Positions 12,183 to 43,878 are shown, counted from the first letter of the stretch. The stretch is DNA of 64,000 bases from a candidate division WOR-1 bacterium RIFOXYB2_FULL_36_35 (GCA_001771505.1 MEUA01000005.1:10808-74807); one strand, 5' to 3'. Notes: generated by a model not told the origin, from the sequence alone. Numbers and translations are program-made.

Positions 12183-12191
12183 ATGTTTTAT

Positions 12192-22373: not shown

Positions 22374-22388
22374 ATATTTATTTTCTCC

Positions 22389-23144: not shown

Positions 23145-24141
23145 TAATTGCCTCCAAATTTTGATCGACTAATTTTTTTGCAATCACAAGCCCTTTTTTT
23201 AAAATCCTCAAATCACTGTCAAAATCTTTATGATTTATAAATTCAGCAACCAGTTTACGGGCATAAGTCCCAATGGAAACCCCATTAACTTTAACCCCAC
23301 AAAGATGACAAAGTTCACCTGTTCTACTATTAGTACCACCTGAAGCCAAAATAATAACCGGCAATTTACTTTTTCTTACAATATCAGAAATTGCAACTGC
23401 CTGAAGAGTAGTATTGTAATCATCGCTTCCCCCACTCATTGGAACGCCATCTGCTTGAATAATCATTCTATCAGGAGCAAAAGCCAAAGCATCCTTTATT
23501 CTCTTCAAAAGATGTATATCAGACAATTGTGAACGATCTAAACACATACTAATATAATTATTTTTTAAATACTTATTCACCAATTTCCAATCCTGCATGA
23601 CAGAATCATCATCGGAAATAATTGCATGCAATTCAAATGTTTCCACTCCATTTACTAAACAAGCAGGGAGTATTTTATCTAATTCTCTCCTTTTATCAAA
23701 AAACTGAACTGCGCTTGAAGGGCAAATTTTTGAACATTCACCACAACCGATACAACGTTTTTCTATTATTTGATGCTCATTACTAATTGCATTTTGAACA
23801 CACACAGACAAACAAGCCCCGCAATGGAGACACTTGGCCTGGGCAACATTCGCTTTCCTAATATGAGGATCACCACGCATACCAATGCTAACATTAATAA
23901 ATGGTCTTGTTCTAAGCTCTATTCCAAGTTTTGGCGCAATCTCGTAGGCTTGATTAACTCCAAGGACAGAACTTTTTACTACATCAAGATTTGCTGAAAT
24001 ATCAATACCAAGTGCGCCAGCTAAAGTATAAAGAAGAGACAACTTTCGAACCTCTTCTGCATCTTCATTTCCAGCTCCACACACAATTTTAAAGTATTGA
24101 CTCTTCTCAAAAATCGATTTTAACTCTTCAAATCTATTCAT
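23137..24141 (-). CDS. 4Fe-4S dicluster (ferredoxin-type) domain protein with an additional uncharacterised domain
   Basis: Two CxxCxxCxxxCP motifs, CLHCGACLSVC and CIGCGECSKICP. The flanking ~250 aa are unrecognised. Confidence 0.6.
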   Translation of the reverse strand: MNRFEELKSIFEKSQYFKIVCGAGNEDAEEVRKLSLLYTLAGALGIDISANLDVVKSSVLGVNQAYEIAPKLGIELRTRPFINVSIGMRGDPHIRKANVAQAKCLHCGACLSVCVQNAISNEHQIIEKRCIGCGECSKICPSSAVQFFDKRRELDKILPACLVNGVETFELHAIISDDDSVMQDWKLVNKYLKNNYISMCLDRSQLSDIHLLKRIKDALAFAPDRMIIQADGVPMSGGSDDYNTTLQAVAISDIVRKSKLPVIILASGGTNSRTGELCHLCGVKVNGVSIGTYARKLVAEFINHKDFDSDLRILKKGLVIAKKLVDQNLEAISG

Positions 24142-25853
24142 AAGTAATTATTTATCCCTTTGTAAAACTTCCTATAATTTGTAGGAGTAATAATGTGAAT
24201 CCCTTCCCCTCCCTTACCACACAGATATTCCTCAATTTCCTCCAAATGCTTTAAATTTCCAAAATGTTTATCCAAAATCACATCTCTATCCCCAGTTTCA
24301 TCATTTTCTTTATAAAAATGAACATCCCCATCAGCAGTAGCGCGCATATAACCATCAAGTCCTGCGACAAAAATACGTTTTGCTCCAAAAACCCATGATA
24401 AAGCAATTAAGAAGATAGAAACAGTTCTGCAATTTGAACTAATTAATCCATCTTTGATATCAAAGGCAACATCATCTAGATCATTATAATAAATAAGTTC
24501 ATACTCGCGTCTTACATAATCATCAATCATCTCCTTTGGAATATGTTGACCAATTAAAAGCTTAGATTTGAGAGAAACAGTATCCACATAGTCAACAAAC
24601 CGACGCTTATTGGTAAATAAGTGATAATCAGGAACAAAAAGCCCTCCTAAGTAATTAGCCCCTAAAACTATTGGTTTGTACTTTTCAATAAAAAGAGAAA
24701 TTAAGTCTTTATACTTTTTTAAACTTGGTCCATTTGCCAAAACCAAAAAATCTGACCCATTATGTCTATTAACATAAGAAATTTTGTCACTGTTTTCGTT
24801 TATCCCTTTTTGTTCATTTTCAGCAGGTTTTAAAGCCTTTTTCTTGCCAAATAGTCCATCACGAATAATTTGATCAACAATGTCTTTTTTAAAGCCTATT
24901 GGTTTCTTGGCTTTTATGACTTCAAAAATATTCCAGATATCTTCAATGTCATACTCTTTTCGCTCAACCAAATTTTTAGCATAGTTTGGATGACATTCAT
25001 TAATACCTGAAAGCATATAGGGTAAATTATATCCCCAAAAGTTTTTTTCTTTTAGTTCAACAAAAAATCGATCAATCAAATTTAATACTGGGATTACGTT
25101 ATACTTGCCTGGCATCATTTGATGAAAATAGGAAAGTAAAATTTCTGTTGGTAAATTACCAGCACCACGCCCCATACCAAAAACAGAAGAATCAACAATA
25201 TCTACTCCAGCATCAATTGCAGCAAAAGTATTAGCAAAAGACATTAGTAAATTATTATGTGGATGAAATCCTAATTTAAAGTTTCTATCCTTTAACAAAG
25301 GGGTAAACAACTCTTTTATTTCATGAGGAAACATGGACCCATAGCTATCAGCTATATATACGTAATCTATCCCCTCTTGATTAATTAAAAAAACTAATTC
25401 ATTTAACTCGTCAGTAGAATAACTAATGTATCCCATCAAATTTACAGACACTAAAAAGCCAAGTCTTTTTATTTGTCCCGCAATATTAACTGCTTCCTTT
25501 GCTTTATCTTTATGAAAGGCCAACCTAATTAATGAAACATTGGTACCAAGATATTGGTTTAAATCATTTAAATCAAACTTACCATAATCAACCATTAAAG
25601 CAATTTTTGCCCCATTTATTCCTCCTGTAACACTTTTTATATCTTCAAAAGAAGTAAAACGAAATCTCCCAAACTTTTTAGGATCAAAAAAATGTTCTAC
25701 TCCATGATAGCCCAATTCTATATAATCAATACCAGCTTTTGAGAGTGCTCGATAGGTTTCACGTACTAATTTGAGATCAAAATCCCAATTGTTAACATAT
25801 CCCCCATCACGAATGGTACAATCAAGAATTTCTATTTTATTCTTATCCTTCAC
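24138..25853 (-). CDS. fusion protein: N-terminal HMGL-like (DRE-TIM metallolyase / pyruvate carboxyltransferase) aldolase domain + C-terminal CstII/Maf (DUF115)-like sialyltransferase-like domain
   Basis: N-terminal ILDCTIRDGGY ... FHPHNN (DRE-TIM family). C-terminal VLANGPSLKKY ... VAGLDGY resembles the GNGPSL and SGIDFY regions of GT42 sialyltransferases and Maf proteins. Confidence 0.45.
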   Translation of the reverse strand: MKDKNKIEILDCTIRDGGYVNNWDFDLKLVRETYRALSKAGIDYIELGYHGVEHFFDPKKFGRFRFTSFEDIKSVTGGINGAKIALMVDYGKFDLNDLNQYLGTNVSLIRLAFHKDKAKEAVNIAGQIKRLGFLVSVNLMGYISYSTDELNELVFLINQEGIDYVYIADSYGSMFPHEIKELFTPLLKDRNFKLGFHPHNNLLMSFANTFAAIDAGVDIVDSSVFGMGRGAGNLPTEILLSYFHQMMPGKYNVIPVLNLIDRFFVELKEKNFWGYNLPYMLSGINECHPNYAKNLVERKEYDIEDIWNIFEVIKAKKPIGFKKDIVDQIIRDGLFGKKKALKPAENEQKGINENSDKISYVNRHNGSDFLVLANGPSLKKYKDLISLFIEKYKPIVLGANYLGGLFVPDYHLFTNKRRFVDYVDTVSLKSKLLIGQHIPKEMIDDYVRREYELIYYNDLDDVAFDIKDGLISSNCRTVSIFLIALSWVFGAKRIFVAGLDGYMRATADGDVHFYKENDETGDRDVILDKHFGNLKHLEEIEEYLCGKGGEGIHIITPTNYRKFYKGINNYL

Positions 25854-27681
25854 AGGCTACCTCTTTTCGAACAAACTGGTTCGACAAACTACTTCTTTCT
25901 TTATTATATATTGCCCAATAAAACCCTTTCATTGAAAGAAGCTCTTCATGTTTTCCCTCCTCAACAACCTCTCCCTTTTCAAGCACAATAATTTTGTCAG
26001 AATCAATCACTGTAGAAAGCCGATGAGCTATAACAATAACAGTTCTATTTCTAGAAATATTATTTATTGCTTTTTGAACTATTGCTTCTGAAATGTTGTC
26101 TAAAGAACTTGTAGCTTCATCTAAAATAAGTATTTCAGGTTTATGAACCAAAGCTCTAGCAATTGCAATACGCTGCCTCTGCCCTCCAGATAATTTCATT
26201 CCCCTATCTCCAACAACAGTTTCATATCCGTCAGCAAGAGATGCTACAAAGTCATGAACATTCGCATCTTTTGCAGCTTGAATAATCTCATTCATATCAA
26301 CATTTAGACCAAAAGCAATATTCTCTGCAAGTGACGCATTAAATATAAAGGTATCTTGAGTAACAAATCCTATTTTTGAAAGCCAGGAACTTATTTTACA
26401 ATCTTTAATATCTATGCCATCAATTAAAATTCTGCCATAATTAACATCAAAAAGCCTTATAATTAAATCTGCAATCGTAGACTTGCCCGCGCCAGAATGA
26501 CCAACAATAGCAGTCATTTTCCCCTTTTCAAAAGAAAGCTTCAATCCCTTCAACACTCCTTTACGCCCAGGATAAGAAAAACTTACATCCTCAAATTTTA
26601 TCTCTTTCTTAAATTCTTTTATCTCCTCGGGCCCATCCTTAATTTGCTTAATATTCTTATTTAAAAGTGAGTAAAGAATTTCTACAATAGGCAAAGTTCC
26701 CATAATTTGAATTCTCAAATTCCCAAGTTGTGAAAGAGAAGGCATTATTTTTTGAAAAGCATACGCAAATGTCCCAAGTATTGGCAAAATAACTGCAAAA
26801 TCAGCAGAATATAAAACTTTGGCTAAAATCAGCAATAACGATAAAAGCACGATAGTCATCGTATCCAATAAATACCCTGGTATAAGTGAGAACTCCCTAT
26901 CTTTTTTTGCCAATTTAAAATAGTCCTGCATAGCTGCAAAAAAGTTCTTTATCCAACGATTTTCAGAAGAAAACACTTTTATTTGTCTTATCCCGCTTAT
27001 TGTTTCACCAAGTAAAACATTTTGTTTCTCACAAGCCACCACTCGCCCCTTCCCCATGTTGTAAGAAATATTACTTGCTATATACTTAGTTAAATAATAA
27101 TATAAAACACCGACCAAAATTATCGCGCCTGATGCATAAGGTGAAATCCCGATCAAAATAAACCCAACTGCCAATAATTTAGCAAACTCTGAAAGAGCTT
27201 GAGGTAAATAAGTAAGAATACTGCCAAGGGACGATGGCGCAGAATAAACCCGATATATAATTTCTCCTTGTTTATGATCAAGGAAATACTGATAATCTGC
27301 AGAAATACATTTTACAAATACTTTTTCTTGAATGTCCTGCCAAACTTTAAAGCCAGCAACAGAACTAACAATGCTCTGTAAATATCCAAACCCATTCTTA
27401 AAAATTACTGAAAAAATAAGCAATAGACAAGAGCTAATAAGTTTGTCTTTTATAGGAAAAAAATTTAAAATAAAAGTTATTATCTTGGCAATTCCTCCTG
27501 CATCAGCATTAATTCCAACCGCAGAATTTAATATTGAGAATAATATCAATACATTGATACCATCAAAAAAAGAACTCGCAAAAGTTAATATAGTAATTCC
27601 AAAAATATAATGCGGATACGGCTTTAAAAAATACCAACATATTTTCAAGCGAGGATTATTTATAAAATTTAAGAATTTCAT
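25843..27681 (-). CDS. ABC exporter, fused TMD-NBD (MsbA/PglK-like lipid-linked glycan or lipid flippase type)
   Basis: Six predicted N-terminal TM helices. Walker A GHSGAGKST, signature LSGGQRQRIAIARAL, Walker B ILILDEATSSLD. Confidence 0.85.
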   Translation of the reverse strand: MKFLNFINNPRLKICWYFLKPYPHYIFGITILTFASSFFDGINVLILFSILNSAVGINADAGGIAKIITFILNFFPIKDKLISSCLLLIFSVIFKNGFGYLQSIVSSVAGFKVWQDIQEKVFVKCISADYQYFLDHKQGEIIYRVYSAPSSLGSILTYLPQALSEFAKLLAVGFILIGISPYASGAIILVGVLYYYLTKYIASNISYNMGKGRVVACEKQNVLLGETISGIRQIKVFSSENRWIKNFFAAMQDYFKLAKKDREFSLIPGYLLDTMTIVLLSLLLILAKVLYSADFAVILPILGTFAYAFQKIMPSLSQLGNLRIQIMGTLPIVEILYSLLNKNIKQIKDGPEEIKEFKKEIKFEDVSFSYPGRKGVLKGLKLSFEKGKMTAIVGHSGAGKSTIADLIIRLFDVNYGRILIDGIDIKDCKISSWLSKIGFVTQDTFIFNASLAENIAFGLNVDMNEIIQAAKDANVHDFVASLADGYETVVGDRGMKLSGGQRQRIAIARALVHKPEILILDEATSSLDNISEAIVQKAINNISRNRTVIVIAHRLSTVIDSDKIIVLEKGEVVEEGKHEELLSMKGFYWAIYNKERSSLSNQFVRKEVACEG

Positions 27682-28763: not shown

Positions 28764-29813
28764 TTACTCAATTACAAGATCCCAAGTTATCGGGGTTCCT
28801 TTCTTTGTATTTTTAGAAATTTTTTTACCCAATAAATCATTTATATGTTTTGGAGAAATTCCGCCAGCAGGTCTAATAGATTTTAAATTATCTAAAGTGA
28901 ATAGATCTCCTGCTTTCATATCATTTACAACATAAAGTGAACGCCTAAATCTCATTGTTTTTTTCTCTTCGGCAGTAGGGATATAATTAACCGTCCCCAA
29001 TGCTTGCCATGCACGTTCAGACTCAATCACTAAATCATGCATCTCTTGTGGCTCCATTGAAAAGGCTGAATCAATTCCTCCATCAACTCGTGATAACGTA
29101 AAGTGCTTCTCAATAACTGTTGCACCTAAAGCAACACTAGCAACAGAAACACCTAGGCCTAAAGTGTGATCAGATATTCCAACAGAACAATTAAATCTAG
29201 CCATCATGTCTGGAATTGTTAATAAATTAGAGCTAGATGGAATTGCAGGATAAGAACTTGTACATTTAAGAAGAACAATCTTGTCATTCCCTTCATTTTT
29301 ACAAGCATCAATAGCTTCTTGAATTTCTTCTATTGTTGCCATCCCTGTAGACATAATTATAGGCTTTCCTGTTGAAGCTATTTTTTTAATTAATGGAATA
29401 TCAACAATTTCAAAAGAAGCTATTTTATAACAAGGAACATTTAAAGATTCCAAAAAGTTAACTGCAGGTTCATCAAACGGAGTGCTAAACCCAATAATTC
29501 CTAATTCTTTACATTTATCAAAAATAGGCTTATGCCATTCCCATGGGGTATAAGCTTCTTTGTATAAATCGTAAAGTTTTTTTCCCTTCCACAGACTATT
29601 AGAGTCATTAATAATAAACCCTTCCGCATTTGAATCAAGTGTCATTAAATCTAACGAAAATGTTTGAAGTTTAAGCGCATCTACTTTACACTTTGCGGCT
29701 GCTTCAACAATATGCAAAGCTCTTTCAATCGACTGATTGTGATTGCCAGACATTTCAGCAATAATGAAAGGTTTAATTTTTTCCCCAATCTTTATATTAA
29801 TACGTTCTTTCAT
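28764..29813 (-). CDS. NeuB-family nonulosonic acid synthase (PseI/LegI/NeuB-like, PEP-dependent), copy 1
   Basis: PFIIAEMSGNHNQSIERALHIVEAAAKCKVDALKLQTF (NeuB N-terminal TIM-barrel motif) and a C-terminal SAF/antifreeze-like domain. Confidence 0.8.
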   Translation of the reverse strand: MKERINIKIGEKIKPFIIAEMSGNHNQSIERALHIVEAAAKCKVDALKLQTFSLDLMTLDSNAEGFIINDSNSLWKGKKLYDLYKEAYTPWEWHKPIFDKCKELGIIGFSTPFDEPAVNFLESLNVPCYKIASFEIVDIPLIKKIASTGKPIIMSTGMATIEEIQEAIDACKNEGNDKIVLLKCTSSYPAIPSSSNLLTIPDMMARFNCSVGISDHTLGLGVSVASVALGATVIEKHFTLSRVDGGIDSAFSMEPQEMHDLVIESERAWQALGTVNYIPTAEEKKTMRFRRSLYVVNDMKAGDLFTLDNLKSIRPAGGISPKHINDLLGKKISKNTKKGTPITWDLVIE

Positions 29814-30520: not shown

Positions 30521-31343
30521 ATTTATAATTATTTACATTTTCTAGTAATTGCATATTTGTGTATAGAATAAATTCATTAAACAATATAGGAGAAAATCCC
30601 TTTGACCGGAGTTTTTCATTATTTTCTGAGTTTTTGAATGCCCATACATCAACAACACCATTAAATCCTTCCAATAAATTACAATCTGACAACTCAAGAA
30701 TCTGCTTTTTATTATTATATTCTTTCCAAATAATATAATTATATTCATCAATAATACTTTGATAATAAATTGTTTGAGGCTTAGAGTATCTCCATTTAAT
30801 AAAATCCAAATTCTTTTGTATCTTAAAATAAATATCTTTTTTAGATTCAATATATTTAAACTGATTAATATCTAATTTTTCATATCCTTCACCTGAAACA
30901 AAGCCACTTAATAATTCTAAGCCTCCATAGCTTTTCCACCCTATCCTCTTATGCCCTTTTACAGCTTTAGAATTAGGAACACCAATAACTAAAGGGAACT
31001 TAGAATCATTAAGAGAAAATTCTCCCATAGCTTGGAACAAACCTGTCCCTTGAAATCGAGGAATAACTCCCACGTTATTACATAAGGCGCCTTTTATAAT
31101 TACTCCATCAACTTTTATCAAAATAGGAAGCAATCCATACATAGCAACAGGTTCATCATTTTTGAAAGCTGCATACCATAAATTCGCCCCTATCGGACAG
31201 GAAGAGAACCAATCAATCAAATCTTTTTTAAATTCTCTGTTAAAAATCAACTTAAACAGAAGCAATATGTCTGAGCTTTTATTTAATTTTCCAAATTTCA
31301 TTTTTGATTTATCAAATAAAATAGGGTATTTGTTTTGATTCAT
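30492..31343 (-). CDS. putative acyl-CoA N-acyltransferase (GNAT-like) protein, 283 aa
   Basis: VGVIPRFQGTGLFQAMG resembles GNAT motif A. Otherwise unrecognised. Confidence 0.3.
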   Translation of the reverse strand: MNQNKYPILFDKSKMKFGKLNKSSDILLLFKLIFNREFKKDLIDWFSSCPIGANLWYAAFKNDEPVAMYGLLPILIKVDGVIIKGALCNNVGVIPRFQGTGLFQAMGEFSLNDSKFPLVIGVPNSKAVKGHKRIGWKSYGGLELLSGFVSGEGYEKLDINQFKYIESKKDIYFKIQKNLDFIKWRYSKPQTIYYQSIIDEYNYIIWKEYNNKKQILELSDCNLLEGFNGVVDVWAFKNSENNEKLRSKGFSPILFNEFILYTNMQLLENVNNYKFELGDNDVF

Positions 31344-31858
31344 AAATTTATCTCTCTTGATTTACGCATAAACTTCTTACAATTCATTGCCATTTTAACA
31401 AATGCAACTATTTCTCCATGTTTTACATCAACACAATTAAATAATTCAAAGAAACCAGCATTTCTAAATGATTTAATAGAAGCTAAATTACTACTTTTTA
31501 TCCTTGCAATAAAAATATCCACATTATTTTCTTCTAAAAATATTTCACAAGACAATTCAATCATCTGTCTTGCATACCCATTTCCTCTCATTTTTGGGAC
31601 TACATTAATATCAAATTCAGCAACATGATTATTTAATTTATCAAGTCTAACTATTCCAATTTTATTTTTTTCCCCATCTTCTGCAATATAAATAAATCTA
31701 TTAGGATTTTTCAATGAATCATTAAACCAAATCTTATGATCTTCATAAGATATTATCCCTGAGCAAAAATTAGCGTTTCTTGTTTTTTCGTCGTTTCGCC
31801 AAGAAAAAACATCATTACAATCTTCATCTAATACAGTTCTTAAATAAATTTTATTCAT
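31340..31858 (-). CDS. GNAT-family N-acetyltransferase (PseH-like aminosugar N-acetyltransferase)
   Basis: 172 aa. IGIVRLDKLNNHVAEFDINVVPKMRGNGYARQMIEL (GNAT motif A). It lies inside the pse-like gene set. Confidence 0.6.
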   Translation of the reverse strand: MNKIYLRTVLDEDCNDVFSWRNDEKTRNANFCSGIISYEDHKIWFNDSLKNPNRFIYIAEDGEKNKIGIVRLDKLNNHVAEFDINVVPKMRGNGYARQMIELSCEIFLEENNVDIFIARIKSSNLASIKSFRNAGFFELFNCVDVKHGEIVAFVKMAMNCKKFMRKSREINL

Positions 31859-32618
31859 AAATATTCTTCAAATTTCTGATATCTCCTACAAAATCATTTA
31901 AATTCTTCATTGATGATTTCAATGTTTCTATTGTTAGCATAGATCCATTTTGTATAAAAGACAAAGTAAATTTCATATCGAAGCTCCCCTCTCCGATATG
32001 CAAATGTTTATCATAAATTCCTTGAATATCTCCATCTGTTAAATGGTACATTGTAGGTTTTAAAGAAATAAAATTTTTAATGTAGTGGGAGCTATCAATA
32101 TTATGCGCATTTGCAGAACAGATAGCATGGCCAATATCCAAACAAAATCCAATTTGAACCTCTTTGATTAAAAACTCGATTTCTTCAGGTGTGGTTCCAT
32201 TGCAGATTAATCCATTATCTAAAGCATAATAAGGCTTATTCTCTATTAATATCCTAGAATCATTAATATATTTCAATTGACTAGCCGTTTCTTTAATATT
32301 TCCATCAATTCCAGGATGGAATATTATCCAATGAGCATTTAATTTATCTGCAAAATGCTGAGCTTCATGAGCTAATTCCATGTTTTTATAAAACTTATTT
32401 TTTTCAGCTAAATTAAGCCCATCTCTAAAATGAGGAGCATGAATAATAAATGGTATATTTAATTCCTGCCAAACTTTTATATAATTTTCATAAGAATCAG
32501 GAATTACATAAAGTTCAATGTAATCATATGTGCTATTCTTATAAAGCTTTATTGCTTCTTCTATATAATTATTATTCGTCGACCATAGTTTCAAACCAAA
32601 CTTAAATTTCTTCATCAT
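31851..32618 (-). CDS. xylose-isomerase-like TIM-barrel protein (sugar phosphate isomerase/epimerase family)
   Basis: IELYV ... IIHAPH ... IIFHPG ... LIENKP ... CLDIGH, a metal-binding pattern of the AP-endonuclease-2/xylose-isomerase TIM barrel. Confidence 0.45.
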   Translation of the reverse strand: MMKKFKFGLKLWSTNNNYIEEAIKLYKNSTYDYIELYVIPDSYENYIKVWQELNIPFIIHAPHFRDGLNLAEKNKFYKNMELAHEAQHFADKLNAHWIIFHPGIDGNIKETASQLKYINDSRILIENKPYYALDNGLICNGTTPEEIEFLIKEVQIGFCLDIGHAICSANAHNIDSSHYIKNFISLKPTMYHLTDGDIQGIYDKHLHIGEGSFDMKFTLSFIQNGSMLTIETLKSSMKNLNDFVGDIRNLKNIYE

Positions 32619-35122
32619 ATTGCTAGTCCCTTCTGAACTATATGTGAATTTAACATGGTAAGATGATCATGTTGTTTTAAAAACCTCAACACATCATTTA
32701 GTGTAAAATAATTATTTACTGGATAAATCCCATCATATATTTCCCTAATCAACTCAAAATCCTCTTGTGTATCTAACGTAAGCCTATATTTTGAATCGTC
32801 TCCATTTCCTATAAATTGTTTTATCTTGAATTTTTCTTCATTCTGATAAATATATGGAGTAACATGCTCTCGCTGGCAGTTCTCTTTGGCAAAATTAAAA
32901 GCTTTTTTAAGAGAAGAAAAATTCATGATTTCAACATCAAGGCCTCTTGGAAAAGTACGCTTTATGGTATTAGATAAATAATCTACGGATGGATCCTTTA
33001 AAAAGGTTGCTACCATGCTATCAATTATATCCGCATCTACAAAAGGACAATCTGAAGTAATCCGAATTATCACATCAAGATTGTTTTCTTTTGCTGCATA
33101 ATAGTATCTCGAAAGAACGTCTTCCTCGCTTCCTCTAAAATATTTCAGATTATTTGATTTAGCCAGAGAAACGATAAGATCATCTCTTGCATCAATAGTA
33201 GTTGCAATGATTATTTCATGGACATTTTTACAGCCTTTTAATCTGTCAATAATATGTTCAAGAACAGGTTTATTTTGAACAGGAAGCATAATTTTACCCG
33301 GCAATCTAGTAGATCCCATTCTTGCCTGAATTATTATTCCAACTTTTCTCTGATTTATATAACCATTAATTAAAAATTCTTGCAATAACTCTATGGAACG
33401 ATCATCAGGACATTCATCGTATTCTCTTAATAAGTAATAAGGAATATCTTTTAAAGGAGATACTTCACCCAAAATAATCTTATGAGTCATTTCAATTAAC
33501 TTATCGGGATCATCAAACACTAGTTTATCTTTAAAGATTTTAGAAAAAGGATGATTATAGTGTACTTGATCAAAATAAAGTCCTTCGACACCAGAAATAA
33601 TGGCAATTGTGGAAGAACTGGTCATACCCTGTGTAACAACAATATCTGAAATGCCTATTACCTTTACATAAGACCAGTCCTTTGGATTTAAGATATAAAC
33701 ATTATTGAGATTATTTAGCTGTGCTATTATTTTATCAAGTTTCTCTCTACAACCATCAGAAAAGCTATGGGTTTGAATTGGAACCTTAGGTTTTAACAAA
33801 ATTGTAAGATCATTATTCAATAAAGCCATTTTTAATGCTATTTCATAAAAAATGACAAAATGATCTTCTGTCATTTTGCATTCTATCCCAAATGACTCAT
33901 CAAAAAAACTAACTACTTTTCTTGATACGTCAATCCCTGCATCTGCAAGTATTTTATGCCTAAAAGCCCTTGATTCTTTAATATATCTTTTATTGAAAAA
34001 TCCTATAGGCAACAACATCTCCTCAGGGCCTTCAACGCCCTTTACATGCGCTTTTCCCCATAAAAAATATTTATCACATCCTAAGAAAGAAAGAACTGAT
34101 TTATTCAAATCAACAGATAAATCAGACCAGTGAAACAAATAATACTTAGATCCGTAATTCTGGCAAACAATAGACTCTGCAATATGACTAAAACTATAAA
34201 AAGAATATCCGAGTTCAGAAGTAATTTTATAATTAGAAAATATTTTTTCATATTGTAAAGCAGAAGCTTTGAAATGATAAAAAACACTGTAAAACAACGT
34301 ATAGTAGTTAGAATTTATTAAATTAATTAAAATTCTAACGCCAGAAAACACATATTTGGGCAAAACCCTAAAAATAAATTGTTTTAACCCCATTGGCAAC
34401 GAATTAAACACAAAATGTTCATAATCAGAGTTTATAGCATCATTATATCCGACCAACCTACATCCCTCCAAATAAATACCTCTTGAATAAAGCAATAAAT
34501 CTTCTTTTTTTATATTTTTATCATCTACAAAAAAATCATCTCCACAACAATGATCTATTCCTGTGTGCAAACCACTAACAGCTTCAGTCATAACCTTAAA
34601 TTTTTTAACTTTCAAAAAAAGTTTTATTCCGCGAAACAAACTAACACAAAATACAGAATAAACAATTATTAACAAATTAAGAAGTTTTATTACTGTTGAT
34701 GGTTGATTTTTCCATTTAATTGGCGGTATCGTTTTAAATTTAATTAAGTATTTCTCTGCTGCAAAACGATTTAGAGGATTATCTTCTAAGACTATAACAT
34801 TATTAATATTATTTTTATATGACATTTCATCTAAACACCTAAGAGCAATAGATAAATATTCAACTATCCATTTTTTCAGCAATGGATTAAAACGGTCAGT
34901 ATCAAATAATTTATTCATTGATTTTGTAAAATATGAATCTAATAAGGCATTTTTTTCAACAAACTCATTTGTCAATTCTACTAGATCTGAATAAATCCAA
35001 TTTAAATATTCAATTCTTCGTTTCCCATTAAAACTTCCCAACAAATTTACTTCTGCAAGCAAATCAATTTGAATGGCTTTCCTTATATTTCTAATTTTTC
35101 CTCTTATAGTTTCAAGCATCAA
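32615..35122 (-). CDS. bifunctional fusion: N-terminal ~600-aa GT-B-like domain + C-terminal CMP-nonulosonate cytidylyltransferase (PseF/NeuA-like)
   Basis: C-terminal VGIIIQARMGSTRLPGKIMLPV (cytidylyltransferase). Upstream of it, LLKPKVP...ISDIVVTQGMTSSSTIAIISGVEGLYFDQ (the GT-B donor half). Immediately downstream of the PseB/PseC homologs. Confidence 0.55.
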   Translation of the reverse strand: MMLETIRGKIRNIRKAIQIDLLAEVNLLGSFNGKRRIEYLNWIYSDLVELTNEFVEKNALLDSYFTKSMNKLFDTDRFNPLLKKWIVEYLSIALRCLDEMSYKNNINNVIVLEDNPLNRFAAEKYLIKFKTIPPIKWKNQPSTVIKLLNLLIIVYSVFCVSLFRGIKLFLKVKKFKVMTEAVSGLHTGIDHCCGDDFFVDDKNIKKEDLLLYSRGIYLEGCRLVGYNDAINSDYEHFVFNSLPMGLKQFIFRVLPKYVFSGVRILINLINSNYYTLFYSVFYHFKASALQYEKIFSNYKITSELGYSFYSFSHIAESIVCQNYGSKYYLFHWSDLSVDLNKSVLSFLGCDKYFLWGKAHVKGVEGPEEMLLPIGFFNKRYIKESRAFRHKILADAGIDVSRKVVSFFDESFGIECKMTEDHFVIFYEIALKMALLNNDLTILLKPKVPIQTHSFSDGCREKLDKIIAQLNNLNNVYILNPKDWSYVKVIGISDIVVTQGMTSSSTIAIISGVEGLYFDQVHYNHPFSKIFKDKLVFDDPDKLIEMTHKIILGEVSPLKDIPYYLLREYDECPDDRSIELLQEFLINGYINQRKVGIIIQARMGSTRLPGKIMLPVQNKPVLEHIIDRLKGCKNVHEIIIATTIDARDDLIVSLAKSNNLKYFRGSEEDVLSRYYYAAKENNLDVIIRITSDCPFVDADIIDSMVATFLKDPSVDYLSNTIKRTFPRGLDVEIMNFSSLKKAFNFAKENCQREHVTPYIYQNEEKFKIKQFIGNGDDSKYRLTLDTQEDFELIREIYDGIYPVNNYFTLNDVLRFLKQHDHLTMLNSHIVQKGLAI

Positions 35123-36288
35123 AATATCTCTCTTATTTTAAATTTTTCAACAATTTTTTTTGTAACTTTAACAACTCTTTTGATGTCACAATCAGACATT
35201 TTAGGATAAAGAGGCAAAGTTATCGAGCACTCATAATATTTTTCCGCATTAAGACAAAGTCCCTTTTTATAACCTATTTTTTTGTAATAAGGCTGATAAT
35301 ATACAGGAATATAATGGACATTTACGCAAATCCCATACTTGAGATACTCATTAAATATTTCTCTTCTAGTAGCGGATAATTTATCAAGATTAAATTTCAA
35401 AATATAAAGATGATGTACATGGTCAATATAAGGTTTAATGCTTAAAGGCTGAAGCTCTTCATATCTACAAAAAACCTTATCATACTCATTTGTTATTTGT
35501 TTTCTGCGTTTAATAAAAACTGAAAGTCTTTTAAATTGACTAATCCCCAAAGCACTTTGAATATCTGTCAATCTATAATTAAAACCTAGAGCCTGCATCT
35601 CATAAAACCATGGTTCTGGATTTATTTTTAATAAATTTGGATCTCTTATTATTCCGTGACTTCTGAACAATTTCAATTTTTTATAAAAATCTTTATTATT
35701 AGTTAATACCATTCCCCCTTCACCGGTGGTAATATGTTTTACAGCATGAAAGCTTAAAATCGTAAAATCAGCATATTTCCCTGAGCCAACAATTTCCCCT
35801 TTATATTTAGCCCCCAAAGCATGTGCAGCATCTTCAATAATTATAATATTTTTTCTATTTGCAATGCTTCGTATTTCTGACAAATCAGCAGGCTGTCCTG
35901 CAAAATCTATAGGTATAATTGCTTTAGTCTTTTTTGATATTTTTTTTTCTATCTCTTTTGGATTTATATTAATAGTATCTTCAAGCACATCAGCAAATAT
36001 AGGCTTAGCCCCACAATACAATATACAATTAGCAGAAGCAACAAAAGTAATCGGAGACGTTATAACTTCATCTCCCCTTTTGATACCTGCAGCTAAACAA
36101 GCAATATGAAGGGCAGATGTCCCGCTATTTACGGCTACAACATATTTTGCTCCGCAATGTTCAGCAACTATTTTTTCAAATTTTTCAATTAAAGGGCCTT
36201 GAGTCAAATAAGAAGACTCTAAAGCCAACTTAACAGCTTCAATATCTTGAGCATCTATCCATTGTGTTGCATAAGGAATTTTTTTCAC
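35119..36288 (-). CDS. pseC: DegT-family aminotransferase, PseC-like (UDP-4-keto-6-deoxy-sugar 4-aminotransferase)
   Basis: AVNSGTSALHIACLAAGI ... EDAAHALGA ... FHAVKHITTGEGG. Directly follows the PseB homolog. Symbol assigned from gene context only. Confidence 0.65.
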   Translation of the reverse strand: MKKIPYATQWIDAQDIEAVKLALESSYLTQGPLIEKFEKIVAEHCGAKYVVAVNSGTSALHIACLAAGIKRGDEVITSPITFVASANCILYCGAKPIFADVLEDTININPKEIEKKISKKTKAIIPIDFAGQPADLSEIRSIANRKNIIIIEDAAHALGAKYKGEIVGSGKYADFTILSFHAVKHITTGEGGMVLTNNKDFYKKLKLFRSHGIIRDPNLLKINPEPWFYEMQALGFNYRLTDIQSALGISQFKRLSVFIKRRKQITNEYDKVFCRYEELQPLSIKPYIDHVHHLYILKFNLDKLSATRREIFNEYLKYGICVNVHYIPVYYQPYYKKIGYKKGLCLNAEKYYECSITLPLYPKMSDCDIKRVVKVTKKIVEKFKIREIF

Positions 36289-37266
36289 TTAAATATTCGC
36301 CATCTCCTGAACTTCTTGAATGCTTAACCACCTATCATTTTTATCACTTGAATACCTAAATCCGTCTGAAACATTTCTGCCTAAAATATGATTATCTTTA
36401 TCCCACCAATTAAATGCCGGCTGAATAACATAGCAATCATCCAATTCTTTAGTATTTCTAGAATCATCTTCAGAAATCATCACCTCATGCAATTTTTCTC
36501 CAGGACGAATTCCAACTATTTTTGTCTTGCAATCTGGAGCAATAGCTTTTGCTATATCTAAAATTTTTACACTTGGAATTTTTGGAATGAAAATTTCTCC
36601 ACCGCTCATCCGCTCAAATCCACTTACAACAAATCGAACTCCCTGTTCCAAGGTTATAAAAAATCGTGTCATTTCCGCATGAGTAATTGGCAAAACGCCT
36701 TCTTCTCTCTTCTTTTTGAAAAAAGGGATAACACTGCCACGACTTCCCACAACATTTCCATAACGAACAACCGCAAATTTTGTACCATCTTTCCCAGCAT
36801 ATGAATTAGCAGCAACAAACAGCTTATCAGAACATAATTTGGTAGCACCATATAAATTAATTGGATTGCAAGCTTTGTCAGTACTTAGAGCTATTACTTT
36901 TTTTACCTTTGAATCAAGGGAAGCTTCAATTACATTCATTGCCCCTAAAATATTTGTTTTTATTGCTTCTGTAGGATTGTATTCCATGGCAGGGACCTGC
37001 TTTAAAGCTGCTGCATGCACAATATAATCAACTCCATGTAAAGCACGCATTAAACGTTCTCTATCGCGAACGTCTCCAATAAAAAACCTGATATTCTCAT
37101 ATTTATCATATTCCTGTTGCATCTCAAATTGTTTTAGCTCATCACGGCTATAAATTATCAATTTTGCCGGGTCAAATTCATCCAAAACAATTTTTGCAAA
37201 TTTTTTACCAAAAGAACCTGTTCCTCCCGTAATTAATATGACCTTATCTTTAAATATATTCATCAT
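36289..37266 (-). CDS. pseB: UDP-GlcNAc 4,6-dehydratase (inverting), PseB/FlaA1-like short CapD-family SDR
   Basis: MNIFKDKVILITGGTGSFGKKF ... YSRDELKQFEM ... FFIGDVRDRERL ... ALSTDKACNPINLYGATKLCSDKLF. This is very close to Helicobacter/Campylobacter PseB as I recall it. Confidence 0.7.
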   Translation of the reverse strand: MMNIFKDKVILITGGTGSFGKKFAKIVLDEFDPAKLIIYSRDELKQFEMQQEYDKYENIRFFIGDVRDRERLMRALHGVDYIVHAAALKQVPAMEYNPTEAIKTNILGAMNVIEASLDSKVKKVIALSTDKACNPINLYGATKLCSDKLFVAANSYAGKDGTKFAVVRYGNVVGSRGSVIPFFKKKREEGVLPITHAEMTRFFITLEQGVRFVVSGFERMSGGEIFIPKIPSVKILDIAKAIAPDCKTKIVGIRPGEKLHEVMISEDDSRNTKELDDCYVIQPAFNWWDKDNHILGRNVSDGFRYSSDKNDRWLSIQEVQEMANI

Positions 37267-37296: not shown

Positions 37297-39066
37297 TCAA
37301 TTTTTAATTAAACGCTCAAATTCTTCAATCCATTTCTCATCAGATTCTGATGATACACGTGCAAAATAATTGCAAAATTTTTTGCGCGCGGCTTGTCTTT
37401 TTGAATCATTCCACCAGGTTTCAACATCAATATAAATAGAATTAATAGCCATAGCCGCATCTTTCGGCGAATCATAAAGTATTCCTACATTACGCAATTC
37501 ATCAAAAATAACCCGTGCTTCAGATTTCAACTGATAAGTTTTCGCAAATGAAATTACTGGTTTATTTAAAGCCATTACTTCCATAAAAGAAGTAAAAAGA
37601 TGATCAAGCACAACAAGACGACAATTATTAATTCTTTCTAAAAATGGAACCGTCATATCTTCTAAAATTATTTCAGGGAACATATCTTTCAAGCGATCAG
37701 AACACCCCCAATCAAAATCAATAAAATATAAACGAACACGTAAGTTATGTTTCCTATTTGAATCAAGCATATCCACAAAGCTAAATTGTTCATTTATATA
37801 ATTTATAAAAGCATCACTATTGAAATATTGAAATCTAAAAAAATATCTGGGCATACTTGTTACCATAAAAAGAATATCTTCTTTTTTATTATTAGCGGAC
37901 ATTTCTTTTACACCTGCCATCTTATTGGCAAAAAAAGGTATGACTTTAGCAGCACAGTCCAATTGCTCCCAACCCCAAGAATAATATTGATCTGTTATTG
38001 CTAATTCATGCTTCTCAACTGCCATATAGTTATGAATTCCATATATTCCTCCATGTTGAGTGCCTATTAAAATAGTTTCTTTTTCAGAAGATATAGCGGC
38101 CAACTGCTTAAAATATTCATTAGAATACCAGGCGTTTGCACTAAATATCGCTTTCGGATTCACAGGATAATCTTTCTCGACTTCCTTTTTAAGCTTTGGA
38201 TAACCTTCAAGATAAATTAATGGCAAATCAAATGGAAGCATACCATTAAAAATCGGCTCAAATCCTTCCAAGTTGCAATCAAAAGTTTTTAATTTTTTCC
38301 GCATTTCCAGATCAATTAAAATTGATTTACAATCAACTTTCTTATCAACCAAAAGCCTAACATTCTCTCTTTCTTTTTCAAGAATTTTTTTCCCGAAATC
38401 AGAAGTAAAATATGGATTAAAGATAAGAAGTGTTTTTTTATTGACGAAAAATTCATGGAAAAACTTTTTTATAAATTGATAAAGGTAAGATTTAAAAGAT
38501 CTTTTATCCTCTTTTTCAGATTCAATGTATTTTTGGGTTACTTTATAACTTTTTTTTTGGGATTTTTCACCCAATAAATCAAGAATTTTTGTATATAATT
38601 GAAGATTATAGGAATCATCACTAATTAATTTAATAAATTCATTGTAATCTTGAGGAATAACAAAAGATTCTTCAGATAATCCAATAGTTACAAGATTTGG
38701 ATATTTATTTAAGGCTCCCTTTAAAGAAAGGTAACGGTCATAAAGCACATGTACATAATGAAAAAGCCATGGGCCGATTAGAATCCTCCAATATTTTTTA
38801 CCAAAATTCACCCCATGAATAGTATTTAATTTATCAGCTAGGATTGGAAGCATACACTCATAAAAATCATCAACATATTTAAAAGCAGCATAAAGTCGCT
38901 CTTTATCTTCCCAAGGACTTGGCAAAACAACCCCTTTAAGAGGCTCCCAAAAGGATCGACGACGATACAATCGGCATCTCTCCCCCAAAAACACAATTGG
39001 TTTTGAAGTATCCCAAAATTCTTCAATTGCTGTAGTTGCTAAAAATTTTTTTTCTTCTGAATTCAT
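37297..39066 (-). CDS. 589-aa putative transferase of unknown specificity (GT-B-like C-terminal half)
   Basis: WRILIGPWLFHYV near the N-terminus. The C-terminal CRLVVLDHLFTSFMEVMALNKPVISF is GT-B donor-half-like. No confident family assignment. Confidence 0.3.
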   Translation of the reverse strand: MNSEEKKFLATTAIEEFWDTSKPIVFLGERCRLYRRRSFWEPLKGVVLPSPWEDKERLYAAFKYVDDFYECMLPILADKLNTIHGVNFGKKYWRILIGPWLFHYVHVLYDRYLSLKGALNKYPNLVTIGLSEESFVIPQDYNEFIKLISDDSYNLQLYTKILDLLGEKSQKKSYKVTQKYIESEKEDKRSFKSYLYQFIKKFFHEFFVNKKTLLIFNPYFTSDFGKKILEKERENVRLLVDKKVDCKSILIDLEMRKKLKTFDCNLEGFEPIFNGMLPFDLPLIYLEGYPKLKKEVEKDYPVNPKAIFSANAWYSNEYFKQLAAISSEKETILIGTQHGGIYGIHNYMAVEKHELAITDQYYSWGWEQLDCAAKVIPFFANKMAGVKEMSANNKKEDILFMVTSMPRYFFRFQYFNSDAFINYINEQFSFVDMLDSNRKHNLRVRLYFIDFDWGCSDRLKDMFPEIILEDMTVPFLERINNCRLVVLDHLFTSFMEVMALNKPVISFAKTYQLKSEARVIFDELRNVGILYDSPKDAAMAINSIYIDVETWWNDSKRQAARKKFCNYFARVSSESDEKWIEEFERLIKN

Positions 39067-41138: not shown

Positions 41139-42096
41139 CTTTCCAAATAATATTCATCACTGTCTTTGCTTCATCGATAGAATAATCCTTGATCAAATTA
41201 GCTTTTTTCAATTTCAAATACCTGCTTATTACATTTATAGCATTTTGGATGCAAGATGAATTCTTTTTACCTAAGTTTAACCGTCGTGGAATCAACTCAC
41301 TTTCCATTTTAGAATTTGTAAATTTTTCATCAAAAATATACCTATTCTCGAAATTTTCAATTTTCAATCTTGCTTTCTCAAACTTAAAATCAAAATCAAA
41401 TAGCTGATAGTACTTTTCATCAAAAGCATGCAAATATATTTTTGCCTTGTTTTTATCAAATAATAGTTCTACGTCTAAAGTTAAATCATTTTGATATTGG
41501 GTAGTCATATATCCATAAATTTTTCTGATAAAAAGATTTTCATTAAACAAAAACAAAAGTGTATCTATTACATGTACGCCATTATGTTTCCACCCTCCAT
41601 AATAAAAGACATCAGCTCTTATCAACTTTCCGAAAACATTCCTTTGAATCATTTTTTTTAAATTGATATATTTTGGATTAAAACGTCTTGAATGATTTAT
41701 TAAAATAGCAACATTTTTACGTTTAGACAAAAGTTTAATTTTATTAAATTCGTTACTATTAGAACAAATAGGCTTTTCAACAAAAATCACTGAAGGAGTA
41801 ACCTTATTTATCAGCATCCTATTTATAATTTCAAAATGAGTATTATCAGGAGTACATACGGAAACTACATCAGGTCGATGTTTATTGATGAATGAAATAT
41901 AATCATTTCCATAACTATCACAATTATAAATTTTTGCCAGCTTTTGGGCTTTATCTAAATCTGTATCAATAAAAGCCACAACGTCAATGTTTGGCACATT
42001 ATCATAAGCACGGGCATGACTAGATACAGAAGAATCTAAGTCACTATCAAAATATCCAGCAATCTTGCCACAACCAATTATTATTGCTTTAAACAT
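41107..42096 (-). CDS. Gfo/Idh/MocA-family NAD(P)-dependent oxidoreductase
   Basis: MFKAIIIGCGKIAGYF Rossmann N-terminus ... EKP motif. Confidence 0.65.
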   Translation of the reverse strand: MFKAIIIGCGKIAGYFDSDLDSSVSSHARAYDNVPNIDVVAFIDTDLDKAQKLAKIYNCDSYGNDYISFINKHRPDVVSVCTPDNTHFEIINRMLINKVTPSVIFVEKPICSNSNEFNKIKLLSKRKNVAILINHSRRFNPKYINLKKMIQRNVFGKLIRADVFYYGGWKHNGVHVIDTLLFLFNENLFIRKIYGYMTTQYQNDLTLDVELLFDKNKAKIYLHAFDEKYYQLFDFDFKFEKARLKIENFENRYIFDEKFTNSKMESELIPRRLNLGKKNSSCIQNAINVISRYLKLKKANLIKDYSIDEAKTVMNIIWKGEKYASRFKK

Positions 42097-42859
42097 TTTC
42101 TCTAAACCTCTTCCATCTTCTCACTACTTTTTGATTTATTTTCTTCAATGCCTCATTCTGATCTAAATAATCCAAAATTTCAGCTAAAGAAAAATAATCC
42201 TTTCCTATACTGTTAAAATGTTTAAATATCCTAGATATAAGTTCAAAATCTTCACACGTATCGACTTCCAAATAAATATCTGGATGATAATAATGAGAAG
42301 GGGCTTCCAAATTACAAATTCTATATTTATGCTTATTTTGCGTAATGTGTATACTAACGTGCTCCCTTAATGGATCATTTCTTAAAACAAATTCATCGGC
42401 TTTTATTAATGCTTTTCCATTATATACTATTACTTCTTGCCCAGGAGGGTAAGTTGTTTTTAGTGAATTTGATACAAAATCATACACATTTTTATATTTT
42501 AGATAATAACCAATGAATTCATCAACGATTTGCGGATCTGGAAGAGGAGAATCCCCAAAAAACTCAACATGTACATCTACTTTAAATTTTTTTATTAAAG
42601 AAGCAATTCTATTTAAAACATCATTTTCGCTACCTCGGAAATATTTAATGTTATGATTATAACAAAGACTAACAATTTCATCATCGCTTGAACTAGTAGT
42701 TGTAGCAACTACTATATCATCTAATAATCTAGACTTTTTTATTCTCTCTATTTGCTGCAAAAGCATGGGTTTACCGGAAATTTCTTTTAAGACTTTTCCT
42801 GGCAAACGAGTCGAACCCATCCTTGCTTGAATAGAACCAATTATTCTTAATTTTTTCAA
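42089..42859 (-). CDS. NeuA/PseF/LegF-family CMP-nonulosonate cytidylyltransferase
   Basis: LRIIGSIQARMGSTRLPGKVL. Confidence 0.75.
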   Translation of the reverse strand: MKKLRIIGSIQARMGSTRLPGKVLKEISGKPMLLQQIERIKKSRLLDDIVVATTTSSSDDEIVSLCYNHNIKYFRGSENDVLNRIASLIKKFKVDVHVEFFGDSPLPDPQIVDEFIGYYLKYKNVYDFVSNSLKTTYPPGQEVIVYNGKALIKADEFVLRNDPLREHVSIHITQNKHKYRICNLEAPSHYYHPDIYLEVDTCEDFELISRIFKHFNSIGKDYFSLAEILDYLDQNEALKKINQKVVRRWKRFRENV

Positions 42860-43878
42860 TCTAAATATCCTTTTACAAAGTCAACAATTCTTTCTGTAGA
42901 CCCTTTAAATTTTTCTGCAAAGTTAGATTTGTCGAATTTTATTCCCTTTTCAAATATTTCATTTAAAGATTGTTTATCTTGGACAAGAATTGTAGCCCCT
43001 ATCCTATTTCCTATAAAACCTTTTTTATCATTAGGACGATAACTTATAACAACATCCCTAAGGACTGCGGCCTCCATAAGCAACATTGACCCCATTCCTA
43101 TAAAGATATCAGAATATATTATCAATGGATTTAAATCTATTCCGTAAAGTATTGATACATTTTTCCTCTTATATTTATCATACTTATCCATTTTTTCTGA
43201 AGGATGCAGTTTTATTAAGAGGTGTTCTTTTTCTCCTATTAGGTCAAGGATATCTTCCAATACTTGGTATTCATCAAAACCTTGGTAATAACTACTGTCC
43301 ATAGGAAAATCTTTTGCGTATTCTTCTGAAATAAATGTTATTATTTTTTTGTCAGCTAAATTCAAATTCTTCAGCCACTGGTCTTTTCCAATAATATTTG
43401 TTGCTTTTGTAACCTTATTTTCTAAAACCGGATTGCCTATTGCATAGATGATATTTCCATCCAAGCCTTCTTTTTTTGCTTCATCTCTGGCATATTCATC
43501 GTTTACTAATATAAAATTTGGCAAAACTAAAGCATTTTTTAGTAAAAATCTTTCTTTATACCATGACCAATGATCTATTATAGAAATAACATTAATATTT
43601 TTTTCTATTCCAAATTTAATAAAAGCTTTATCGATAGAATTTCCCCAACTTGTGCCGGTAATAATGAGTTTTATGGGTATTTCTTTAAAATTGGCTTCTA
43701 CAAACTTACCATATTCTTCTTGCGTACTAAAATCGATAACAGTACTTTTTATATTATTTACATCAAATATTTTTTGAGCAAAAGAAGAAGCAACACAGAT
43801 ATAAGGTTCATTTAAAACCTTTATAATTTCGCTTAAATAAGCTGCTGGCCCTGCATCCTTAGTTGAGAAAATTATCAC
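42856..43878 (-). CDS. 340-aa GT-B-like protein (possible PseG-type UDP-sugar hydrolase or glycosyl/glycerophospho-transferase)
   Basis: C-terminal SDIFIGMGSMLLMEAAVLRDVVIS, a GT-B donor-half pattern. It sits between a methyltransferase and a cytidylyltransferase. Confidence 0.3.
   Translation of the reverse strand: MIIFSTKDAGPAAYLSEIIKVLNEPYICVASSFAQKIFDVNNIKSTVIDFSTQEEYGKFVEANFKEIPIKLIITGTSWGNSIDKAFIKFGIEKNINVISIIDHWSWYKERFLLKNALVLPNFILVNDEYARDEAKKEGLDGNIIYAIGNPVLENKVTKATNIIGKDQWLKNLNLADKKIITFISEEYAKDFPMDSSYYQGFDEYQVLEDILDLIGEKEHLLIKLHPSEKMDKYDKYKRKNVSILYGIDLNPLIIYSDIFIGMGSMLLMEAAVLRDVVISYRPNDKKGFIGNRIGATILVQDKQSLNEIFEKGIKFDKSNFAEKFKGSTERIVDFVKGYLD

Follow-up and report, generated by a model that had tools for sequence, protein, structure and literature searches.

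A recurrent GT-B–cytidylyltransferase fusion in the pseudaminic acid module of a WOR-1 surface-polysaccharide cluster is a candidate pseudaminyltransferase

[quoted passage not shown] Few transferases of nonulosonic acids (NulO) or Kdo are known, and new, deeply divergent families are still emerging (PMC5420450, PMC12887879); the ulosonic-acid transferase families are mutually unrecognisable by sequence and have come to light one by one, with GT118 in 2024 and GT140 in 2026 (PMC12887879). The new families so far, namely the TagB-like enzymes of Tannerella, GT118 and GT140, could not be recognised from their predecessors by sequence (PMC5420450, PMC12887879). In Tannerella forsythia, Tanf_01245, TFUB4_00887 and BFO_1060 are TagB-like proteins of the glycosyltransferase B (GT-B) type with a His-Pro (HP) motif and are genetically required for the transfer of derivatives of pseudaminic acid (Pse) or legionaminic acid (Leg) (PMC5420450), and the CMP-sugar site of bacterial sialyltransferases, known as the Freiberger motifs, combines an HP motif with an upstream D/E-D/E-G (cited in PMC5420450). 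Here we analyze a 64,000-nucleotide stretch (the window) of the genome of candidate division WOR-1 bacterium RIFOXYB2_FULL_36_35 (GCA_001771505.1 MEUA01000005.1:10808-74807), centered on B, an 835-aa protein in which a GT-B-fold domain is fused to a cytidylyltransferase.

The window has a G+C content of 31%, and every gene between 1053 and 61467, including all window genes described below, lies on the minus strand. Its genes, among them many of GT2 and GT4 type, form a surface-polysaccharide cluster of the Wzy/Wzz/Wza type, which contains three modules for CMP-activated acidic sugars: a NeuB-based NulO module (I), a Pse module (II) and a module for a Kdo-like keto-deoxy acid (III). The nearest relatives of its unusual genes are found in metagenome-assembled genomes (MAGs) of Margulisiibacteriota, WOR-1 and Omnitrophota. 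Four large proteins are referred to as A (19033-20865), B (32615-35122, with B-N as its N-domain), C (37297-39066) and D (42856-43878). An earlier note on this DNA had named seven open reading frames (ORFs), all of which are present on the minus strand at exactly the coordinates that it gave, and had counted three cytidylyltransferases; a search of the window with three cytidylyltransferase sequences returned exactly those three.

The fusion architecture that the earlier note had assigned to B is borne out by domain searches and modeling. B (32615..35122) was delimited from its ORF, domain searches and start context. Its N-domain of about 590 aa (33353..35122) gave no match in Pfam, in a library without PF27878, a tag that some B-N homologues carry; the model of this part has a GT-B fold. 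The C-domain (32615..33352) matches CTP_transf_3 (PF02348) at aa 596-796 with 115 bits and E 5.8e-33. The start codon is probably the ATG at 35119, overlapping the PseC stop codon in a shared TGATG, through which B is translationally coupled to PseC. The C-domain had been described as PseF-type, which does not hold, as the PseF model (TIGR03584, cut-off 205.7 bits) was not matched at E<=0.01. It is instead of the SpsF/6oew type: its solved relative is the cytidylyltransferase 6oew (6oew_A, E 1.8e-57), and its homologues are named SpsF in the source databases. Identity to the stand-alone cytidylyltransferase at 42089-42859 is 39% by BLASTP. A hydrophobic helix of B (aa 144-162, Kyte-Doolittle 2.33) was considered as a membrane anchor and rejected, because 27 of 44 homologues fall below 1.6 there and carry charged residues.

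B belongs to module II. PseB (UDP-GlcNAc 4,6-dehydratase (inverting), 36289..37266) matches TIGR03589 with 537.3 bits against a cut-off of 407.75, the PseC aminotransferase (35119..36288) matches TIGR03588 with 494.2 bits (cut-off 423.5), and the pseudaminic acid synthase PseI (28764..29813) matches TIGR03586 with 492.7 bits (cut-off 340.25). Since all three exceed their equivalog cut-offs, the module is, as judged from sequence, a genuine pseudaminic acid pathway. It further comprises a PseH-like GNAT acetyltransferase (31340..31858; Pfam GNAT, and TIGR03585 at 44 bits, below the threshold of 93.1) and a second GNAT, together with a PIG-L deacetylase, a TIM barrel resembling sugar isomerases, and a methyltransferase. 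Also encoded there is a single-chain ATP-binding cassette (ABC) exporter of 612 aa that joins transmembrane and ATPase domains (25843..27681; Pfam ABC_membrane and ABC_tran). The C-domain of B is the sole cytidylyltransferase of the module and, from this context, would be the CMP-Pse synthetase. We propose, with a probability of roughly 0.55, that B is a CMP-Pse synthetase joined to its cognate GT-B pseudaminyltransferase within a three-module surface-polysaccharide cluster.

Homologues of B-N form 99 clusters. One fragment of B itself aside, the best are 48-50% identical, and all named homologues come from Omnitrophota, Margulisiibacteriota, WOR-1, Thermoanaerobaculaceae or similar MAGs. A PF02348 domain is fused to B-N in 27 clusters (24 full-length and three partial). 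On a neighbour-joining tree of the N-domain the fused state changes at least 12 times, with the window's B nested among unfused proteins, so the coupling of B-N to the cytidylyltransferase was made or broken repeatedly. A genome scan with one genome per GTDB species yielded 27 loci, all in MAGs, where B-N lies in PseB-PseC-[B-N]-cytidylyltransferase-...-PseI operons, and this Pse synteny is kept across several candidate phyla. The activator is SpsF-type or PseF-type (the latter in locus L011); it is fused to B-N in L004-L006 and L020, directly downstream in L015, L017 and L018, and otherwise a few genes away. The natural synthetase–GT-B fusion is new, recurrent and so far confined to uncultivated lineages. 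Homologues of the ABC exporter stand next to B-N or PseI in six other loci (L005-L009 and L021), overlapping the end of the B-N gene in L007 and following it within about 230 nt in L009. The exporter travels with the B-N/Pse cassette, a hint that it flips or exports a product bearing Pse. As a separate observation, the activator is a frequent fusion partner in B-N operons: L013 (12280-14001) encodes a 573-aa cytidylyltransferase–PseG fusion, and in L018 (9708-11486) a 592-aa protein with a cytidylyltransferase-like part directly follows the B-N homologue.

A PseG-like ORF was not found anywhere in the window, which bears on the main alternative explanation of B-N and D. Both could be biosynthetic nucleotide-sugar processors, analogues of PseG, SpsG, LegG or NeuC that remove the nucleoside diphosphate (NDP) before NeuB-type condensation, and the fusion would then be a pathway fusion like that of PseF and PseG. 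The enzyme set of Bacillus subtilis is comparable, in that SpsG and SpsF act in one pathway, SpsG being needed for legionaminic acid and SpsF being the activator (PMC7439481). The cytidylyltransferase–PseG fusion of L013 and the presence of 2-epimerases and hydrolysing NeuC among the best fold matches of B-N also fit this explanation. However, a canonical PseG-like protein is already encoded in 15 of the B-N loci, including a PseG–PseH fusion directly after the activator in L017 (TIGR03590, 134.9 bits) and L015. In these loci the Pse pathway is complete without B-N, which would make B-N an additional Pse-linked step, and a general replacement of PseG by B-N was rejected on the same count. Moreover, B-N, at 590 aa, is about twice as long as PseG or NeuC, and the PseG model (TIGR03590, cut-off 153.55 bits) was matched by none of A, B, C and D at E<=0.01. 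Given the co-occurrence with PseG, we consider a hydrolase or epimerase-like role unlikely for B-N; D is a different matter and is weighed below. What takes the place of PseG in the window may be a neighboring gene. Just upstream of the PseH-like GNAT lies an AP_endonuc_2/xylose-isomerase-like TIM-barrel gene, at 31851-32618 in the window and at 14312-15073 in L011; both Pse operons are without a PseG-like ORF, while most other B-N loci have PseG there. This gene could be a non-orthologous replacement of PseG or a sign of a different Pse derivative.

AlphaFold2 modeling with family alignments gave confident structures for B-N (pLDDT 90.7, pTM 0.91) and A (pLDDT 93.8, pTM 0.93). In these models both are GT-B proteins with two Rossmann-like domains and an inter-domain cleft, in keeping with the GT-B-like character suggested for them earlier; structure comparison agrees, with about 260 residues beyond the canonical core and about 10% identity to anything solved. 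For D, a GT-B-like fold is indicated indirectly. The fold of B-N is nearest to the CMP-releasing TagF/TarL/Bcs3 enzymes, with 2-epimerases also close. In another alternative, B-N would be a TagF-like phosphotransferase or polymerase that uses a CDP-activated donor to add a phosphate-linked unit to the polysaccharide, and mere operon packing would explain why it occurs with Pse genes. We regard this as improbable. Pfam Glyphos_transf, the TagF-type model, was not matched at E<=0.01 by B-N or by A, C and D, and genes for CDP-glycerol or CDP-ribitol synthesis were not recognised in the window. By family, the activator fused to B-N is a CTP_transf_3 enzyme (CMP-keto-acid sugars), and the synteny with PseB, PseC and PseI extends across several candidate phyla.

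The family alignment of B-N shows three conserved motifs, K444-P-K446, G499-M-T-S-S503 and H524-P. Polar or charged residues that are invariant or nearly so occupy cleft-type positions in B-N (E180, D195, E292, H313, E316, D408, K444, K446, S502 and H524), and in A such positions are held by E345, H371, R425, H478 and P479. These residues, together with the repeated fusion of B-N to an enzyme, speak against a non-catalytic role of the large GT-B-like proteins, as scaffolds, chaperones or regulators of chain length resembling the GT-B-fold accessory proteins Asp1 and Gap1, for which we see very little room.

Under the pseudaminyltransferase proposal for B, the C-domain would make CMP-Pse from CTP and Pse; B-N would take over the labile CMP-Pse, transfer Pse to the growing glycan and release CMP; and export of the Pse-bearing product would follow, for which the co-conserved ABC exporter may be responsible. 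The proposal starts from features that are observed, namely which fold and domains B has, which Pse genes surround it, and that fusion and synteny are conserved; from these we infer the donor, the acceptor and all catalytic activities. Several points weigh against it. The HP motif is invariant in A (H478-P479) and D (H225-P226), but B-N has K-P-K at that place and its HP at 524-525. B-N is encoded inside a biosynthetic operon, between PseC and the activator and away from other glycosyltransferases. The window is without a canonical PseG, and B-N or D might supply that step here. The cytidylyltransferase–PseG fusion of L013 indicates that fusion alone is not decisive and proves neither a transferase nor consecutive steps.

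To relate A, B-N, C and D to each other, family alignments were built from database homologues (A1 for B-N, A2 for A, A3 for D and A4 for C) and compared profile to profile. In all-against-all BLASTP the four are mutually dissimilar (best E 0.3). By hhalign, D and the C-terminal half of A are clearly related (D 115-319 on A 389-577; probability 95.4%, E 1.6e-8), with shared K-x-H-P and G/A-S motifs. The remaining pairs are weak: D and B-N reach 41% (E 2.8e-4), A and B-N 11.6% (E 0.0026), C and A 13.6% (E 0.002), C and B-N 2.7% (E 0.017), and C and D 2.6% (E 0.017). It is the C-terminal domain that carries the weak alignments among A, B-N and C and between D and B-N; A, B-N and C also space their motifs similarly. 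With AlphaFold2 secondary structure added, A and B-N align collinearly over about 410 columns (P 3.6e-4 to 1e-3, probability 16-37%), short of significance. On this comparison the four are best treated as separate families, contrary to the paralogy claimed in the earlier note, of which only the D/A relationship stands; it is plausible that the four share an ancestor and not just the generic fold.

Known families were assigned with NCBIfam and Pfam models. C is a member of TIGR04331 (LIC12162), with 525.7 bits against a cut-off of 225 and residues 9-583 aligned to positions 1-585 of the 585-residue model. A reaches 58.7 bits with TIGR04326 (LIC13510), below the cut-off of 250, its aa 316-550 being collinear with model positions 316-556; the remotest A homologue, P0149, is a true TIGR04326 member at 467 bits, so the two families are linked but distinct. 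B-N matches TIGR04417, named for a PFTS motif, at 36.7 bits (cut-off 100) over aa 401-518 only, and the counterpart of this motif in the B-N family is G-M-T-S-S. D is marginally over the cut-off of Pfam DUF354 (PF04007; 25.5 bits against 22, aa 86-323 on profile positions 97-327 of 349); it has sub-threshold matches to NF046086 (BFO_1060; 26.1 bits, E 4.3e-6, cut-off 200), over its 117 C-terminal HP-containing residues only, and to TIGR04396 (24.2 bits). Pfam Capsule_synth, the KpsC/KpsS (GT107) model, was not matched by A, B-N, C or D. Among the families suggested beforehand, LIC12162 is thus right for C, and the PseG, Glyphos_transf and Capsule_synth models fit none of the four. Profile searches of the Protein Data Bank (PDB) with all four families returned no significant relative, the best hit (E 0.034) being an unrelated ribosomal protein; KpsC chains were matched very weakly by the A profile (E 0.95-1.1). 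When the full-text literature was searched for the names of the four related NCBIfam families, a single passing mention came up. The description of these families as under-characterised is therefore apt. Beside them, L011 (1041-2978), L042 (1351-3288) and L050 (8899-10029) encode proteins of 376-645 aa with weak TIGR04396, LIC12162-profile or TarB-like matches, and further unclassified GT-B-like families may exist around NulO genes in these lineages.

Protein A (19033..20865, 610 aa), a distant TIGR04326 relative without a Pfam match, is encoded in module III. Its gene overlaps by 8 nt that of a KdsB-like cytidylyltransferase directly upstream (20858..21595; NF009905, 256.5 bits, cut-off 255). 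The rest of the cassette (21603..25853; Pfam and NCBIfam matches) encodes an HpcH/HpaI-type aldolase, a HAD phosphatase, an LdpA-like 4Fe-4S protein and a protein that joins an HMGL-like aldolase domain to a weak MptE-like tail, so that two proteins are of the pyruvate-aldolase type. A metagenome scan with the closer A sequences as queries gave 28 loci. The order HMGL/MptE – Fe-S – HAD – HpcH – KdsB-like – A – GT2 – RmlD-like turns up again even where A is just 27% identical, the GT2 and RmlD-like genes being an extension found only sometimes. Eight loci have a KdsB-like homologue directly upstream of the A homologue, and in 15 it lies no more than 7 kb away. L032, L037, L038, L040, L041, L051, L052 and L057, from marine and other metagenomes, share the same gene set and order. 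Because the cassette is without KdsA or KdsD, its product is probably not Kdo but an undescribed CMP-activated keto-deoxy acid, for which A would be the transferase acting on the product of the KdsB-like activator. A conserved cassette for such an acid is new. The MptE-like (DUF115) domain is also found in Maf flagellin NulO transferases; in the HMGL-like protein (24138-25853) the match covers the C-terminal half (E 0.0022), and this tail could be a further CMP-sugar-using domain.

Module I contains the second NeuB, D, the SpsF-type activator, a GFO/IDH/MocA oxidoreductase, an aminotransferase, methyltransferases and C. Protein C (37297..39066, 589 aa) matches TIGR04331 over its full length, gave no Pfam match, and carries an invariant R445; its gene has the second NeuB module on one side and the Pse module on the other. 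The family to which C belongs is a large one (5664 representatives at E<=0.001). A tblastn search of C against plasmids returned no match, and its only outside context is a Herbaspirillum island with an LIC12162-family gene downstream of neu genes (PMC6679464). C would be the best candidate within module I, and a probable one, for the transferase of the NulO made there.

Protein D (42856..43878) is a 340-aa DUF354-type (PF04007) GT-B protein. Its gene overlaps by 4 nt that of the stand-alone SpsF-type cytidylyltransferase downstream (42089..42859; PF02348, 92.1 bits), and the second NeuB-family synthase, Neu/Leg-like, is encoded upstream (44489..45568; TIGR03569, 335.1 bits, below the threshold of 399.65). 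Elsewhere, D occurs in three independent contexts (34-45% identity) with a CTP_transf_3 gene directly after it or close by, and the order NeuB-D-CTP_transf_3-GFO/IDH/MocA is kept in two of the three. Proteins of about 566 aa and of 483 aa without Pfam matches beside D homologues were considered as relatives of A, B-N or C and proved unrelated, one being an FkbH-domain protein.

For D, the hydrolase explanation set out above has about even odds, since D stands where an NDP-sugar hydrolase of PseG/SpsG/LegG type would be expected: it lies between NeuB and an SpsF-type activator, and a canonical NeuC/LegG/PseG-type hydrolase was recognised neither in the D module of the window nor in two of the three other D contexts. 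The best meaningful PDB match of the D family profile is UDP-GlcNAc 2-epimerase 4neq, which at E 0.12 is not significant, and one D homologue carries PF02350. Against this, the only named sub-threshold NCBIfam matches of D are the transferase family BFO_1060 and TIGR04396. Locus L059 also encodes a D homologue together with a true PseG, although it holds two NulO gene sets and this PseG belongs to the second. D would thus be either the missing NDP-sugar hydrolase of module I or a fourth CMP-sugar transferase, a TagB-like one for NulO, with about equal likelihood.

These results also qualify the pairing on which the earlier note had built. The large proteins adjoin or are fused to cytidylyltransferases in the case of A, D and B, but three genes lie between C and the nearest one; outside the window, in unrelated genomes, the linkage recurs for B-N, A and D, and none has been demonstrated for C. 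Dedicated couples of CMP-sugar synthetase and transferase find support in the recurrent linkage of the former three, with the reservation that D may be a hydrolase. A tidier scheme would assign one GT-B-like protein of about 600 aa (A, B-N or C) to each acid-sugar module. More tentatively, and at somewhat less than even odds, A, B-N, C and possibly D would represent three to four new, mutually very distant glycosyltransferase families for CMP-activated ulosonic acids, one per module, with B as a channelling synthetase–pseudaminyltransferase fusion and A as the transferase for an undescribed keto-deoxy acid.

Other genes of the window deserve a brief mention. The region 11049-15051 encodes a WbuX-like amidotransferase with HisF-like and HisH-like proteins, which together make up a set for acetamidino modification, and also a radical SAM protein of the B12-binding kind, homologues of which are encoded directly after B-N in L011 and L016 and a few genes away in L013, L020, L021 and L024. 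Two DegT-family aminotransferase genes lie side by side (48583-49554 and 49567-50664); the product of the first (323 aa) covers only positions 7-249 of the 360-position profile and may be a truncated duplicate. At 54804-57739, two ORFs of 521 and 457 aa have no Pfam family, and the 521-aa product, which opens with at least five strongly hydrophobic segments, may be a flippase or polymerase partner of the adjoining Wzz/Wza genes.

The locus offers three to four candidate families with high-confidence structural models, each with a conserved genomic partner that predicts its donor. If the proposal for B is true, the fusion would be a convenient one-polypeptide tool for chemo-enzymatic pseudaminylation. 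The LIC12162 and LIC13510 families, which are large, unstudied and known from the O-antigen loci of Leptospira, also gain a testable function, and the A cassette flags an undescribed pathway for a CMP-activated acid sugar.

Compared with described systems, the Tannerella transferases resemble A and D in the HP motif, which is invariant in both and of the kind described for bacterial sialyltransferases too, and D matches the HP-containing C-terminal part of NF046086. In contrast, D reaches only 26 bits against the cut-off of 200, B-N and C do not match NF046086, and for the Tannerella proteins no fusion with a cytidylyltransferase is described. TagF/TarL, Bcs3 and Cps3D differ from B-N in sequence (about 10% identity, no Glyphos_transf match) and in length, B-N being about 260 residues longer; their donors are CDP-alditols made by another cytidylyltransferase family, whereas B-N is tied to CTP_transf_3 and Pse genes. 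The PseG/SpsG–PseF/SpsF pairs share with B the arrangement of a GT-B protein beside or fused to a CMP-NulO synthetase, as in the fusion of L013, but B-N is twice as long, has the opposite domain order with the GT-B part N-terminal, does not match the PseG model and co-occurs with canonical PseG. The Leptospira O-antigen-locus families TIGR04331, TIGR04326, TIGR04417 and TIGR04396 share the size of about 600 aa with the large proteins described here. C is a full TIGR04331 member; A, B-N and D match TIGR04326, TIGR04417 and TIGR04396, respectively, collinearly and well below the cut-offs, which suggests sister families. GT99 (WbbB), GT107 (KpsC/KpsS), GT118 (the KpsS1 pseudaminyltransferase) and GT140 (KrkA) are modified GT-B enzymes with CMP-Kdo or CMP-Pse donors, and the A profile has a very weak match to KpsC (GT107; E 0.95). 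Together, a GT-B enzyme for CMP- or CDP-linked donors beside its activating cytidylyltransferase is an already known kind of system, and what is new here is three uncatalogued or barely catalogued families. As ulosonic-acid transferase families are still being found singly, these candidates are worth testing, although they do not overturn the current understanding of such systems.

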